DNA from: a virus
Taxonomy: Duplodnaviria > Heunggongvirae > Uroviricota > Caudoviricetes
Reading direction: 5' to 3' (one strand)
Length of the DNA: 14,752 nucleotides
IMG/VR virus record: IMGVR_UViG_3300031565_000009
Both the position numbers and the translations under genes were made by a program. Under the pieces are notes generated by a model, which saw nothing but the letters and a program-made list of their open reading frames with translations, was not told the origin of the DNA and did no database searches. Shown one piece after another: positions 1 to 12,577 of the stretch (position 1 is its first letter; each line of letters begins with the position of its first letter).

Positions 1-644
1 GCCCGATAAATCACGGCCGACTGCCTACCGCTAAGGCTGCGGTTCGCCTTGGGCAGAAGGGACTGCCTGACCTGCTCGGGATGATCCGAAAAATGGAGGA
101 AGCGTCGGGGCAACTCGTCCACATACTGCTGGACCTTCTCGTTGCACTCCACGAACACGCGGGTGTAGCCGTCCTTGGCCTTAATCTTGGAATCTTCCAC
201 CACCGAGACCGCCAGCCGGTGATCCTGGATGGCCGGGACAAACTCGCCGTTCTCCTCGCGGATGGTCCGATCAATGGCGTTGCTGACAAACTCCCGCAGC
301 GCCATACCCAACTCCGTCCAGTCGATCGCGCCAAAATCGAGTACCCATCCTAAATCGATGGTCCTGGTCGAGGTGCCGCCCAGCTTGCAGACAACTCGCT
401 GGACCCGCTTACGGGTCAATCCGTCGTCCACCTCGTCGTCGCGGGTCTGAAAGTCCAGGCGGGTCTTTCCGCAGCAGACGAACACCTTCAGGCCGGCCCG
501 CAGCAGCACGTTGATGGCGTGCTTCGTGCCTGAGCCGAATTGACCGATGGTGCCGTCCACACCGCAGTCGCGAGTCGTGCTGACGCCGAGCAGGGTGTAG
601 CCTTCGACCGGAGCCACACCGGGATTCTGAATCATCAGGAACAT
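1..644 (-). CDS. GHKL-like ATPase with permuted motif order, 3'-truncated by the window edge (at least 214 aa)
   Basis: Hand translation from ATG 644 (SD GAAGAGG upstream) is open to the edge: MFLMIQNPGVAPVEGYTLLGVSTTRDCGVDGTIGQFGSGTKHAINVLLRAG...WTELGMALREFVSNAIDR...KDGYTRVFVE. Not in the ORF track because no stop lies in the window. Confidence 0.8.
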   Translation of the reverse strand, partial: MFLMIQNPGVAPVEGYTLLGVSTTRDCGVDGTIGQFGSGTKHAINVLLRAGLKVFVCCGKTRLDFQTRDDEVDDGLTRKRVQRVVCKLGGTSTRTIDLGWVLDFGAIDWTELGMALREFVSNAIDRTIREENGEFVPAIQDHRLAVSVVEDSKIKAKDGYTRVFVECNEKVQQYVDELPRRFLHFSDHPEQVRQSLLPKANRSLSGRQSAVIYR

Positions 645-686
645 GAATGCCTCTTCATCACGGATGTCGTACTTGACCTCTATTCA

Positions 687-714
687 AGAATAGCACGAAA
701 GTGGCCAAAGTCAA
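687..714 (-). promoter_or_regulatory. Conserved sigma70-type promoter, family copy 1
   Basis: Minus strand TTGACT-TTGGCCACTTTCGTGC-TATTCT-TGAATAGAG: 16-bp spacer, extended -10 TG, upstream of ATG 644. Confidence 0.75.
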
Positions 715-732
715 ATAGGCCAGCACAAATTT

Positions 733-873
733 CTAGCGAAAAACGAGAAACGCGAAAAGCACGATCAGAACAAGAAAAATGAAGACGACAAGTACCCGCC
801 CAAACGGAATCGGTCTCTCGCCCTCCTCTGGCGGATAGACCAAATTGACAACCATCTCAATGAGCCATTTCAT
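733..873 (-). CDS. Small membrane protein, 46 aa (may instead start at ATG 1095, 120 aa)
   Basis: MKWLIEMVVNLVYPPEEGERPIPFGRVLVVFIFLVLIVLFAFLVFR has a C-terminal hydrophobic helix and is paralogous to the N-terminus of 945-1223. In-frame ATG 1095 has a strong SD (AAAGGAG). Confidence 0.5.
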   Translation of the reverse strand: MKWLIEMVVNLVYPPEEGERPIPFGRVLVVFIFLVLIVLFAFLVFR

Positions 874-944
874 AGGCAAGGTCGAGTTTGCACCTCGCAG
901 GGGCGGCAAATGTACCGATTCGAGCCGCGAAAAAAAGTCCGACA

Positions 945-1223
945 TCAACTCGACGTAGCCCACACCCTCGCTTGCCTCCAGCACCATACCACACAGCCGG
1001 CAGTGGGCTCGCCTCTTGTTGGAGCCCACAGGCTCATCGAAGTCCGCCCGTCGCTCGCGCCGCCAACATCGGAATTGCTCAACCGAAAGTCGCATCCTAC
1101 TCCTTTCAAGACAAGACAGATGAAGACAGCCAACATCCGCCAAAATGGGATCGGCTCCTCACCAGCCTCCGGCGGATAGACAAGATCGACCCAAGCCTCA
1201 ATGAGCCAGCGGAACGGTTTCAT
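945..1223 (-). CDS. Small membrane-associated protein, paralog of 733-873
   Basis: MKPFRWLIEAWVDLVYPPEAGEEPIPFWRMLAVFICLVL... shares the WLIE-x3-LVYPPE-x-GE-x-PIPF motif. The C-terminal half is uncertain. Confidence 0.4.
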   Translation of the reverse strand: MKPFRWLIEAWVDLVYPPEAGEEPIPFWRMLAVFICLVLKGVGCDFRLSNSDVGGASDGRTSMSLWAPTRGEPTAGCVVWCWRQARVWATSS

Positions 1224-1280
1224 CAAAAGACTTCGGGCTGTTCGAGGACCAACCGAACCATCCGTGCGCCAAGGTCCGCG

Positions 1281-5386: not shown

Positions 5387-5648
5387 CCATCCCTCCCCAC
5401 CGCTTCGCGTAAGCCACAAACTGGCTCCGGGCAGTGAATTTTTCAGTGCGCTTGATACACGCTTCACAGAGGCAGATGGCGATGTCACCCCAATTGGCAC
5501 CGTCGCTGCCTTGGCAATCGGTCAGCGGATGGGAAAAGTAGTCATCACCCACCACAGCAGTGCAACCCTGGCAACAGTTGACTTCGGTGTACTTGCCGTC
5601 GTCACTGCGCTGCTCCTGGCGAGCCTCTTGTTTAGGCGTTCGCGGCAT
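5367..5648 (-). CDS. Small Cys-rich (putative Zn-binding) protein, 93 aa
   Basis: ATG 5648 with SD GGAG; CCQGC and CLCEAC motifs; overlaps both neighbours. Confidence 0.65.
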   Translation of the reverse strand: MPRTPKQEARQEQRSDDGKYTEVNCCQGCTAVVGDDYFSHPLTDCQGSDGANWGDIAICLCEACIKRTEKFTARSQFVAYAKRWGGMDGKGIR

Positions 5649-6288
5649 TGACGATCTCCAATTCTTCCTCAGCCGGCTCCCCGGCTGGTTCCTCAATCTC
5701 CGGCGGCTCCGGAGCCTCGCCTTCGAGATACATCTGCTCACCACAGGCGCAGGTAGGGCACCCCGCCACGTCGATCCACTTCTGAGTCATTCGGCAGATG
5801 CAGCCGCACTCGGGGCACTCTACCTTGAGCATCCGCGTGCCCTGTTTAGGCGGGGCATTGGAGTGCTTCAACTCGGCGTGCGGATAGGGGCCAATCTGGT
5901 CAACGATCTCCTGGAGCCGCACTTTGAGGGTATCGCCAGCATGTGTAGCAGTCAGCTTGCCCTCCAGGCCAATCTTGCGGGCCACACCCTTGAAGCGGCC
6001 ACGATGCCCCTGATCGAGGCCAGCAACACAATGGCACAACTCGTGGACCAGCGTGGCGGCCACCTCGATGGGGTCCCTCAGCACGGGCGAAATGAAAGTC
6101 TCAAAGTGCTGGTCGCCGGAACACTCAGCACTCCACGCCTCACCGATCCGCTTCTTCTTTTGAGCCAGGCCAGACTTGGATGGCCAGGAGCAGGAGGCTC
6201 TGATCTTCTCGGGCAAAACGAAGCCGATCCTCTCGAAATCAGGACGCAGCTTCTCAATGCACTTCAACAGCCATTCTTCGCGTATCAC
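5632..6288 (-). CDS. SprT-like zinc metalloprotease with C-terminal Zn ribbon and acidic tail, 218 aa
   Basis: ATLVHELCHCVAGLDQGHRGRF (HExxH plus third His), KVECPECG...CPTCACG, Glu/Pro-rich tail. GTG start with SD GGAG. Confidence 0.85.
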   Translation of the reverse strand: MIREEWLLKCIEKLRPDFERIGFVLPEKIRASCSWPSKSGLAQKKKRIGEAWSAECSGDQHFETFISPVLRDPIEVAATLVHELCHCVAGLDQGHRGRFKGVARKIGLEGKLTATHAGDTLKVRLQEIVDQIGPYPHAELKHSNAPPKQGTRMLKVECPECGCICRMTQKWIDVAGCPTCACGEQMYLEGEAPEPPEIEEPAGEPAEEELEIVNAANA

Positions 6289-6328: not shown

Positions 6329-6356
6329 AGAATACCACGAAGGTGGCCAAAGTCAA
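6329..6356 (-). promoter_or_regulatory. Conserved sigma70-type promoter, family copy 2
   Basis: TTGACT-TTGGCCACCTTCGTGG-TATTCT-TGAATAGAG; only 2 differences from copy 1 over 37 bp. Confidence 0.8.
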
Positions 6357-8098: not shown

Positions 8099-9415
8099 TC
8101 AGAAGGTAGCTTCCGAGGCTAAGATAGGCTCCTCGTAAGTCGTTTTTGGAGTGTTTTGGGTCTTCTTTCGGCCCTTTTTGGTCTTCGGAAGGCCCTCGAC
8201 GACCCTTTTCAACTCCGTTTGCGGGCATCCATGATAGTCGCCATGCTTCGTGACGGTCCCGGTGATGTCCATGGTGTCGCCGACATTCCAGTCGTCCAGT
8301 TCCTTCGACGCCCACCACACAATGATGTTGCCGTCCGGCGTCTCGAAGCGAACGAGCGTGCGGACACCATAGGTGCCCTCAAAGTATTTCATCGCCTTGA
8401 CTTCGCAGCCCGCGAATCCAAAACGCTGGCCGACTTCGCCTAGATGCTTGCGCTGTCGATCCTGCTTCTTCCGCAGGTTCAACTCCTCGATGCGCTCCAA
8501 ATGCCGCAAGTAGGCCGATACCGCCGAGGCGACGAGGCCGATGGTCTTGTAGTTGACCGACTCTTGCCGGCAGGCTACACCCAGGTTGTACTCGTAGTTG
8601 CTGACGCCGGCCGCCGGGATCGCGCGAGCCCATGCCAGGGCCTCCCCGGCTAGTTTCTCGTCGCGTTCCTCCGCATACAGGCTGTGATTCTTGATTAACT
8701 CCTGGACGAACTTGCTCTTCCAGTTGGTCAAGATCATCCAGGCAGTCGAGCCCGTGGTCTGCTCGTCGCTGAACGGATCACTTTTCTCGATCATGCGGCG
8801 ACTCTTCCAACCCAGTCGGCGGATGCAGATCGCCACGGTGCCCAGAAACTCGCGGATGTCCCGCATCCGCCCACCACGTCCACCACCCCAGCAGAAGTCT
8901 TCATCTTCCGCCTCGCGGGCGGCATCAAGGGCCGAGAACTCCCATCCCGCGCGGGCGGCCAGCGTTAAGGCGGAAACGTGCCCGAGGAAGTCGGCGATAC
9001 ACTGCCGGCCAACCTGCACGATGCGGCCATCCTCGTGGCCAAGCACGAAGACTTCCTTCCGCCGACGCAAGGCTTGGCAATGATCGCAGTGGGTATCGGT
9101 GCTGCGGTACACCTCTGGCACAGTCTGCCCGGGGACCGTGCGGACCAGATTCTCACCGTTGTCAAGCATTTCGATGGCCGCCAGCAGGGTCCAACCCTCA
9201 AACTTGGGCGACTCGCCGATCACCTCGATCTCCAGACGGGCTTGCTTATACACCAGCTTCGTGTCCGGCTGACGCTTCTTTACCTCAAACTCGCGAACGA
9301 CCCGCAACGCGATGGGCTGGCAGCCCAGCTTCTTGGCGCGGCGGTTCAGCCTTTCGATCCGCTCGCGGAGGTGATCGAAGTTGTAGGCGGGGATGTCGAA
9401 GACGTTCTCATTCAT
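8099..9415 (-). CDS. Phage-type protein with Zn finger and C-terminal OB-fold-like domain, 438 aa
   Basis: Start reassigned to ATG 9415 (MNENVFDIPAYNFDHLRERIERLNRRAKKLG) because a promoter lies inside the longer ORF. CDHC...VGRQC Zn motif; C-terminal HLGEVGQR...GTYGVRTLVRFETPDGNIIVWWAS...ITGTVTKHGDYHGCPQTELKRV has an OB-fold pattern. Confidence 0.8.
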   Translation of the reverse strand: MNENVFDIPAYNFDHLRERIERLNRRAKKLGCQPIALRVVREFEVKKRQPDTKLVYKQARLEIEVIGESPKFEGWTLLAAIEMLDNGENLVRTVPGQTVPEVYRSTDTHCDHCQALRRRKEVFVLGHEDGRIVQVGRQCIADFLGHVSALTLAARAGWEFSALDAAREAEDEDFCWGGGRGGRMRDIREFLGTVAICIRRLGWKSRRMIEKSDPFSDEQTTGSTAWMILTNWKSKFVQELIKNHSLYAEERDEKLAGEALAWARAIPAAGVSNYEYNLGVACRQESVNYKTIGLVASAVSAYLRHLERIEELNLRKKQDRQRKHLGEVGQRFGFAGCEVKAMKYFEGTYGVRTLVRFETPDGNIIVWWASKELDDWNVGDTMDITGTVTKHGDYHGCPQTELKRVVEGLPKTKKGRKKTQNTPKTTYEEPILASEATF

Positions 9416-9478
9416 GGTGTCGCTCACGGTGTCGCTCACGGTGTCGCTCACGGTGTCGCTCACGGTGTCGCTCACGGT
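9416..9478. repeat. Perfect 12-bp tandem array, GGTGTCGCTCAC x5 plus 3 nt
   Basis: Read directly; abuts ATG 9415 and lies downstream of the 9502-9529 promoter. Confidence 0.97.
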
Positions 9479-9501
9479 TGCTCGTTGCTCGACTCTATTC
9501 A

Positions 9502-9529
9502 AACATACCACAAATGTGGCAAAAGTCAA
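9502..9529 (-). promoter_or_regulatory. Conserved sigma70-type promoter, family copy 3
   Basis: TTGACT-TTTGCCACATTTGTGG-TATGTT-TGAATAGAG; preceded on the minus strand by a T9 run (9533-9541). Confidence 0.8.
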
Positions 9530-9592
9530 GACAAAAAAAAACCCCGGACTTGCGAACGGTAGCTTGCGAGCTGGTCGAAGGGATTGCAGCAA

Positions 9593-10813: not shown

Positions 10814-10841
10814 ATCATACCACAATTTTGGCGAAAGTCAA
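10814..10841 (-). promoter_or_regulatory. Conserved sigma70-type promoter, family copy 4
   Basis: TTGACT-TTCGCCAAAATTGTGG-TATGAT, 16-bp spacer, directly upstream of SD GAGGAG and ATG 10793. Confidence 0.8.
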
Positions 10842-12423: not shown

Positions 12424-12550
12424 ACTTCAACGGACACTTCAACGGACACTTCAACGGACACTTCAACGGACACTTCAACGGACACTTCAACGGACACTTC
12501 AACGGACACTTCAACGGACACTTCAACGGACACTTCAACGGACACTTCAA
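12424..12550. repeat. Perfect 12-bp tandem array, ACTTCAACGGAC x10 plus 7 nt
   Basis: Read directly; spans from the -10 box of the 12550-12577 promoter to 27 nt before ATG 12396. Confidence 0.97.
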
Positions 12551-12577
12551 TCTTACACCATCATCGTCAGAAGTCAA
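12550..12577 (-). promoter_or_regulatory. sigma70-type promoter, divergent family copy 5
   Basis: TTGACT-TCTGACGATGATGGTG-TAAGAT-TGAA: same -35 box, 16-bp spacer and TGAA after the -10 box. Confidence 0.65.

Follow-up and report, generated by a model that had tools for sequence, protein, structure and literature searches.

The first 644 nucleotides of a 14,752-nucleotide stretch of DNA from the Caudoviricetes virus record IMGVR_UViG_3300031565_000009 (the whole stretch is called the window below) carry the beginning of a minus-strand gene, and they raise the question of whether the nucleotide pocket of a GHKL ATPase can be built from a chain in which the motifs that line it stand in another order. 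Few nucleotide switches have been studied as thoroughly as the GHKL ATPases (gyrase B, Hsp90, MutL, MORC and the histidine kinases), which are also drug targets, and to our knowledge, including what a literature search returned, all described members keep one motif order. The initial annotation had described the gene as a GHKL-like ATPase with circularly permuted motifs that the open reading frame (ORF) track had missed, and the gene is indeed absent from that track because its ORF runs off the window edge. The window carries the first 45% of it. The full ORF, whose retrieval the annotation had called for, was obtained from public assemblies and encodes a protein of 475 aa, designated P0001, with 100% identity over the 214-aa fragment, which comprises the whole rearranged GHKL-like domain (residues 1-200) plus the first strand of a middle domain. 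We consider it likely that P0001 is an early phage protein of three modules, a rearranged Bergerat domain, a transducer-like middle and a zincin-like tail, and that it is a distant relative of the protein encoded by a canonical GHKL gene in its neighbourhood.

The four motifs on which the proposal was built are found at the residues given for them, namely IQNPG (5-9), IGQFGSGTKHA (33-43), REFVSNAID (117-125, with E118 and N122) and DGYTRVFV (158-165). Along P0001 the order is G1 (5-11), G2 (34-41), N-box (117-125) and G3 (159-161), and the canonical order of N-box, G1, G2 and G3 is not kept. The ORF starts with an ATG at 644..642 on the minus strand, and because an in-frame TGA lies at 686..684, 14 codons before this ATG, an upstream extension hiding a canonical N-box is excluded. 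Counted over 258 full-length members of the family, down to about 31% identity, E118, N122, D125, G39, W109, G216 and R246 are invariant, G34 is kept in 257 members, T161 in 255, N7 (which is never Asp) and K41 in 252 each, and G9 and G37 in 251 each. At G1, canonically DxGxG with the adenine-binding Asp, the strand and loop I-x-N-P-G-V-A is present with the Asp replaced by Asn; at G2 the GxxGxG pattern (G34, G37, G39) is kept and helix 39-49 then follows in the model of residues 1-200; at G3 the pair G159-x-T161 is conserved. Judged from the aligned sequences, the best-conserved positions of P0001 are those predicted to line the GHKL nucleotide pocket, together with the middle-domain Arg and the metal-site-like motif of the tail.

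When residues 1-200 were modelled alone with AlphaFold2 (AF2) from 73 diverse sequences, the result was one compact domain with a predicted local distance difference test score (pLDDT) of 95.6 and a predicted template-modelling score (pTM) of 0.91, in line with a single domain as had been supposed and not with two half-domains in tandem. Comparison of this model with 48,161 Protein Data Bank (PDB) representatives returned exclusively GHKL proteins as the best 16 matches (Z 5.5-3.2, with 100-134 residues aligned), among them GRP94, TRAP1, the topoisomerases II (topo II) of phage T6, yeast and African swine fever virus, MORC2/3, ParE, MutL, SMCHD1, Topo VI-B and MLH1. In the full-length AF2 model (pLDDT 87), residues 1-280, which cover the GHKL and transducer portions, matched the same GHKL families at Z 6-7.5 (TRAP1, GRP94, Hsp90, MORC2/3/4, SMCHD1, ParE, MutL and topo II).

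Every one of these alignments begins at model residue 1, at a point that lies six residues ahead of the G1 Asp of the target. The first aligned residue is 73 in yeast Hsp90, 87 in Hsp90-alpha, 152 in TRAP1, 143 in GRP94, 62 in MORC2, 52 in E. coli MutL, 63 in ParE, 70 in Topo VI-B and 57 in MLH1, and the corresponding G1 aspartates are D79, D93, D158, D149, D68, D58, D69, D76 and D63, respectively. Because all alignments start six residues before the G1 Asp, N7 is placed at the position of the adenine-binding Asp. Where the target is an isolated GHKL domain, the alignment continues to model residue ~189-200. Since residue ~190 is reached, it is helix 169-190 that corresponds to the last GHKL helix, which leaves helix 112-130 over; the segment 169-181 is probably this counterpart. 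As far as the model goes, residues 1-200 form a Bergerat alpha/beta sandwich matched at modest Z, and it is the exclusively GHKL nature of the matches, together with the consistent placement of N7 on the G1 Asp, that carries the weight of this model-based argument.

The position of the N-box helix was addressed by hhalign on sliced alignments, comparing the profile of the P0001 family with that of the family of the canonical GHKL neighbour. In this comparison the N-box of the neighbour family (its residues 22-40) is matched by residues 113-131 of P0001 with a score of 30.6 that none of 100 column shuffles reaches (maximum 24.7), while the alignment of the two families G2 to G2 has p ~0.05 when taken alone. 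When the P0001 profile was re-ordered so that the N-box block came first, one continuous alignment was obtained with E 7.4e-5, only modestly better than the pieces taken singly. No similarity between P0001 and the neighbouring GHKL protein was picked up by BLASTP.

Covariation within the family is consistent with this placement. Mean-field direct coupling analysis (DCA) was run on 311 family sequences with an effective number (Neff) of 155, after an earlier run on 225 sequences, and column-shuffled nulls, which ignore phylogeny, peaked at 1.5-1.87. The method can be considered credible because the known hairpins 66-85 and 87-95 were recovered. The G1 strand is coupled to the G3-like strand by the pair 6-162 (2.72, ranked 1st and 3rd in the two runs) and to the strand following the N-box by 4-147 (1.99) and 6-144, and the first post-G2 strand is coupled to the G3-like strand by 54-166 (2.04) and 53-166. 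The G2 helix and the N-box helix are linked by 44-119 (2.00), with which the weaker couplings 42-121, 38-124 and 38-128 form one antiparallel register, and the N-box helix is linked to helix 169-181 by 120-174 (2.23), 113-174 also being seen. The pairs 6-162, 4-147, 6-144, 44-119, 120-174, 54-166 and 53-166 lie above every null, as do 24-129 and 74-129. The implied order of the sheet is post-G2 strand, G3-like strand, G1 strand and post-N-box strand, and this is the strand order of the core sheet of the Bergerat fold.

Taken together, the GHKL-only structural matches, the profile match of the N-box and the couplings to the G2 helix support the proposed relocation of the N-box helix inside one Bergerat-type domain. 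The word circular has to be dropped from that proposal, because no cyclic rotation turns N-G1-G2-G3 into G1-G2-N-G3. The order found corresponds instead to a non-circular permutation, or segment transposition, that puts the N-box helix together with its following strand in the connection leading from the post-G2 strands to the G3 strand. Such a transposition could have proceeded through a tandem duplication followed by deletions. No trace of a tandem duplication was found by hhalign within residues 135-195, and a reading of strand 160-166 as a remnant of one is unsupported, the hhalign score of these residues being no better than shuffles. A literature search for a permuted GHKL protein or Bergerat fold returned no paper. 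Nine members of the family (P0132, P0169, P0181, P0185, P0196, P0205, P0206, P0261 and P0270), which are 502-534 aa long and match in two stretches, carry ~35-50 extra residues before position 135-143, which suggests an insertion near the relocated helix in this subgroup.

Several observations weigh against a rearranged and active GHKL domain. The overall collinear profile match to the neighbour family is weak (E 1.3e-3, probability 18%), and residues 135-195 do not align by hhalign above shuffles with the region of the neighbour holding G3 and the last helix or with that holding G1 (strand A/strand B). The G3-like segment thus has no significant profile match to the canonical G3 region, and the G3 assignment rests on the motif, its conservation and its coupling. 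That E118 and N122 pack on the pocket is predicted from covariation, at Neff ~155 and with a null that ignores phylogeny, and the coupling 38-124, ranked 6th at first, came 57th once the sequence set was enlarged. The structure prediction and comparison that had been proposed as a check gave GHKL-only best matches on the one hand, while on the other Foldseek against the PDB with the 200-residue domain returned nothing at E <= 0.001 and the VIA Z-scores are below the level that the tool regards as clearly non-random; sequential aligners cannot place a moved helix, and modest Z would be expected if such an aligner is unable to align it. Searches of Pfam, NCBIfam and PADLOC with the fragment, the full P0001 and cut segments found nothing relevant. 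Finally, the G1 Asp is Asn throughout, so that ordinary ATP binding is not assured; the change of this Asp to Asn in Hsp90 or GyrB abolishes ATP binding.

Residues ~200-290 form a transducer-like middle domain that contains the invariant R246, and in the comparison with the neighbour family residues 206-245 align to 209-242, a score reached by 1 of 60 shuffles. After a helical stretch, residues ~376-475 form a small zincin-like domain in which EExxH...D replaces HExxH...H. The structural matches of residues 376-475 are middling in Z, with jannalysin (4jix, 7.5), abylysin (4jiu, 7.1), Spartan (6mdx, 6.8) and Wss1 (5xbn, 6.0) besides many other zincins, and residues 434-474 align to 429-468 of the neighbour family with the motif falling on HEFGH, which none of 60 shuffles reaches. 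E446 is present in 232 of the 258 members (EExxH) and replaced by His in six (full HExxH), while E447, H450 and D457 are found in 234, 236 and 237, respectively; the third metal ligand is probably Asp457. One member, P0268, keeps HEFAH and matches Peptidase_Mx1 (E 5e-4) and SprT-like.

A catalytically dead pseudo-GHKL with a pseudo-protease tail, acting as a scaffold or binding protein and keeping its motifs for fold or ligand only, is in our estimation unlikely. Residues with catalytic roles in GHKL proteins are kept down to the most distant of the 258 members (the Glu that acts as general base, the Asn that binds Mg, the glycines of G2 and the Arg of the middle domain), which argues for activity, as do E447, H450 and D457, which could still provide a catalytic Glu and two metal ligands, and the complete HExxH of six members; this has to be set against the Asn found for the G1 Asp in 252 of 258 members, none of which has Asp there, the Glu found in 232 where HExxH has its first zinc-binding His, and the fact that no hidden Markov model (HMM) of a GHKL or peptidase family matches P0001.

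It is quite unlikely, in turn, that no segment has moved at all and that P0001 is a truncated GHKL protein, which lost the N-terminal N-box helix and strand and in which ExxxNxxD arose by convergence on the last helix. Unrestricted collinear hhalign does pair helix 112-130 with the neighbour's last GHKL helix, but this part of the alignment is of low confidence, and in local mode the helix is put on the N-box with a score that, as noted above, 0 of 100 shuffles reach. The order of four strands, a helix and a strand resembles the C-terminal half of the Hsp90 N-domain, and residues 135-195 have no significant match to the strands that come after the canonical N-box; yet the structural alignments run on to model residue ~190, so that a later helix fills the position of the last one, and the couplings 120-174 and 113-174 indicate adjacent helices, as the N-box and last helices are in GHKL proteins. 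In addition, the nine-residue stretch matches the Hsp90 N-box at six positions, which speaks against convergence.

The ATPase modules of Hsp90/TRAP1/GRP94, MORC and SMCHD1, each a GHKL domain followed by a transducer or middle domain, are the best structural matches to residues 1-280 (Z 6-7.5) and 1-200 (Z 5.5-4.0) of P0001, whose G2 sequence IGQFGSG is near-identical to the Hsp90 G2 motif IGQFGVG and whose N-box EFVSNAID resembles the Hsp90 N-box ELISNASD; a conserved Arg in the middle domain recalls the catalytic middle-domain Arg of Hsp90. Unlike these modules, P0001 has its N-box helix and strand after the G2 strands and not at the N terminus, lacks an N-terminal strap, carries Asn for the G1 Asp and has no HATPase_c or HATPase_c_3 HMM match (none at E <= 1 for the whole protein or <= 10 for cut segments), and its C-terminal partner domain differs from those of Hsp90, MORC and SMCHD1.

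A further comparison is offered by the canonical neighbour family, which has the same three-module architecture at almost the same length (479 aa, compared with 475 aa in P0001). The G2, middle-domain and zincin motifs of the two proteins are collinear at nearly equal residue numbers and only the N-box is displaced, lying at 22-40 in the neighbour family and at 113-131 in the P0001 family. The neighbour family has DDDPDG at G1 and a full HExxHx5H and matches HATPase_c_3 and the SACS domain, whereas the P0001 family has NPG at G1 and EExxHx6D. Both occur as stand-alone early genes of phages or other mobile elements. The zincin folds that match the P0001 tail are those of the minigluzincins (jannalysin, abylysin and selecase) and of proteases acting on DNA-protein crosslinks (Spartan, Wss1 and SprT-like proteins); unlike in these, the first metal-binding His is Glu in 90% of the P0001 family and the third ligand is predicted to be Asp457.

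Among named viral proteins the only recurrent structural match was rIIA, and it was weak (Foldseek against BFVD, E 2e-3 to 0.1, TM ~0.25), with no sequence match found between rIIA and P0001. Both are phage GHKL proteins that are expressed early. rIIA consists of an N-terminal GHKL domain and a variable C-terminal part, and protects from prophage-induced exclusion. In contrast to P0001, it has no zincin tail, and its motifs stand in the canonical order.

That the family might be widespread but uncharacterised, as had been suggested, agrees well with its distribution. It comprises 774 proteins at 90% clustering among longer proteins and 1342 representatives at 50% identity, 412 of them below 1e-30; nearly all members are ~475 aa long with the same start residue, and the ESM Atlas clusters of the family are 95-98% viral. 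Distant members in cultured phages include gp29 of Pseudomonas phage YuA, encoded in the replication region, and proteins of Bordetella phages CN1, CN2 and others, of Brevundimonas and Dinoroseobacter phages and of Synechococcus phage Ssp-JY42 (annotated 'HATPase'), and all of these have the same motif order and the same C-terminal motif. In PHROGs, P0001 falls into the unnamed families 8203 and 6077. Searches of PDB sequences by phmmer and with the family profile gave chance matches only (a UMP/CMP kinase at E 0.027 and a designed repeat protein), and a literature search found no paper on the family.

The carrier is a temperate phage represented by a contig of ~41 kb, and the P0001 gene lies in its early or replication region, in the order serine recombinase, small early genes, a SprT-like gene, a Mini-A-like gene (322 aa), the canonical GHKL-zincin gene (479 aa), a 120-aa membrane-protein gene, P0001 and, further on, a GpA-type terminase. 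The features of the window that bear on P0001 are collected in Table 1.

Table 1. Positions of the P0001 gene fragment, its domain elements, its expression signals and the neighbouring genes in the window
Feature	Position	Strand	Remarks
Rearranged GHKL-like gene fragment	3..644	minus	Residues 1-214 of the 475-aa P0001; cut by the start of the window
G1-like strand and loop, residues 2-11 (IQNPGVA)	612..641	minus	N7 in place of the adenine-binding Asp; structural alignment
G2 box and helix start, residues 33-43 (IGQFGSGTKHA)	516..548	minus	Aligned to the G2 of the neighbour family; conservation
Relocated N-box helix, residues 112-130	255..311	minus	Profile match, conservation, couplings
N-box motif, R117-D125 (E118, N122, D125)	270..296	minus	
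Strand after the N-box helix, residues 145-149	198..212	minus	DSSP strand; couplings 4-147 and 6-144; predicted pairing with the G1 strand
G3-like strand, residues 158-166 (DGYTRVFVE)	147..173	minus	G159 and T161 conserved; couplings 6-162 and 54-166
Helix 169-181, probable counterpart of the last GHKL helix, beside the N-box helix	102..140	minus	Alignment ranges; couplings 120-174 and 113-174
Shine-Dalgarno-like GAAGAGG	650..656	minus	Read directly
Promoter-like TTGACT-N16-TATTCT, TG before the -10 hexamer	687..714	minus	43 bp before the ATG
120-aa membrane-protein gene	733..1095	minus	Between the canonical GHKL gene and P0001
Canonical-order GHKL-zincin gene, 479 aa	1281..2720	minus	Sacsin/Hsp90-like GHKL with N-box at 22-40, middle domain, Wss1/SprT-type HExxHx5H zincin
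Mini-A-type topoisomerase VI-A-like gene, 322 aa	2823..3791	minus	phrog_6247, E 1.6e-110

The canonical GHKL gene ends 637 bp upstream of P0001, matching the distance of about 640 bp given at the outset, and the Mini-A-like gene lies 2.2 kb upstream of P0001, directly upstream of the canonical gene. The suggestion that the two GHKL genes are partners finds no support as a general rule in their distribution, since each family occurs without the other. The family of the canonical neighbour numbers >3792 proteins in mobile elements, its relatives in other elements stand alone (one of them near an ArdA anti-restriction gene), and none was found in the complete phages YuA and Ssp-JY42, which carry P0001-family members; nor do three distant P0001-family members have a 480-aa or a 320-aa neighbour, so they too stand alone and have no Mini-A-like gene. 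No topoisomerase is annotated next to YuA gp29 or next to the Ssp-JY42 member, and the constant pairing with an A-subunit gene expected of the B subunit of a type IIB topoisomerase (Top6B or the sought 'Mini-B') is not found. The trio of Mini-A, canonical GHKL and P0001 genes is local to this phage lineage, and P0001 and the canonical neighbour are distant relatives, not proven paralogues, with P0001 not dependent on the neighbour. The adjacency of the Mini-A and canonical GHKL genes is not kept in other elements (L008-L010) and may be lineage-local as well.

It is accordingly very improbable that P0001 is a dedicated partner, either in a heterodimer with the canonical GHKL protein or as the missing B subunit ('Mini-B') of the Mini-A-like protein, for although GHKL ATPases are commonly dimeric, the three genes lie on one strand within 3.8 kb and close relatives have the two GHKL families on shared contigs, as shown by identical lengths of the longest contig, YuA and Ssp-JY42 do without the canonical gene, the three distant members and the canonical-gene relatives elsewhere are equally solitary, and the P0001 gene has its own promoter with a 120-aa gene intervening. 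In favour of such a partnership, the Mini-A paper (PMC7671362) reports that no B-subunit (Bergerat-fold) gene has been found beside Mini-A genes.

The own conserved promoter that had been reported for P0001 is present as TTGACT-N16-TATTCT at 714..687 and is one of five copies in the window, where 0.03 copies would be expected. All five copies, at 687-714, 6329-6356, 9502-9529, 10814-10841 and 12550-12577, are on the minus strand and read TTGACT-N16-TAnnnT with the conserved spacer TTnGCCA...GTG; judging by their sequence, they look like a phage promoter family heading minus-strand transcription units. A direct repeat of 103 nt is found at 765-867 and 1106-1208 (72% identity). It duplicates the part of the 120-aa gene (733..1095, minus) that encodes a C-terminal membrane helix (WLIE..LVYPPE.GE.PIPF...), and the upstream copy lies in an uncalled short ORF at 945..1226 (minus). 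A stand-alone SprT-like gene at 5632-6288 (minus; phrog_6361, E 1.3e-48, with a weak Pfam SprT-like match) is the third zincin-type gene of the early region, and at 8099-9592 (minus) lies the gene of a 497-aa protein that is assigned to the unnamed phrog_2319 (E 2.6e-74) and matches nothing in Pfam.

If P0001 is a rearranged three-module protein, the usual pocket would be rebuilt with the G1 strand between the post-N-box and G3-like strands and with the N-box helix lying antiparallel on the G2 helix. P0001 would then bind and hydrolyse a nucleoside triphosphate, E118 acting as the general base, N122 holding Mg and the G2 loop holding the phosphates, while Asn7 instead of Asp would read the base. 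The state of the nucleotide could in turn gate the metal-binding tail, whose target early in infection may be a protein of the host or the phage or a complex of protein and DNA; from the modules we infer a nucleotide-driven GHKL switch gating a protease-like tail at that stage. A bolder version, which we put forward only tentatively and regard as doubtful, is that P0001 represents a non-circularly permuted Bergerat nucleoside triphosphatase, with N-box helix and strand moved into the loop before G3, possibly through a tandem duplication and three deletions, and with a nucleotide preference possibly changed by the Asn for Asp replacement, that drives an EExxH metalloprotease-like tail and serves many phages as an early weapon directed at host defence or at host proteins, comparable to rIIA in spread and obscurity.

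If the rearrangement is real, the P0001 family would be a natural example of the same pocket being formed by a reordered chain, and it would provide a case for studying how non-circular permutations evolve and, with the base-binding Asp swapped for Asn, which parts of the Bergerat pocket are truly required. Experiments would be easy, given that members occur in cultured phages of Pseudomonas, Bordetella, Brevundimonas and Synechococcus and that a canonical relative is encoded in the same phage, and they could show what a common early gene of phages does.

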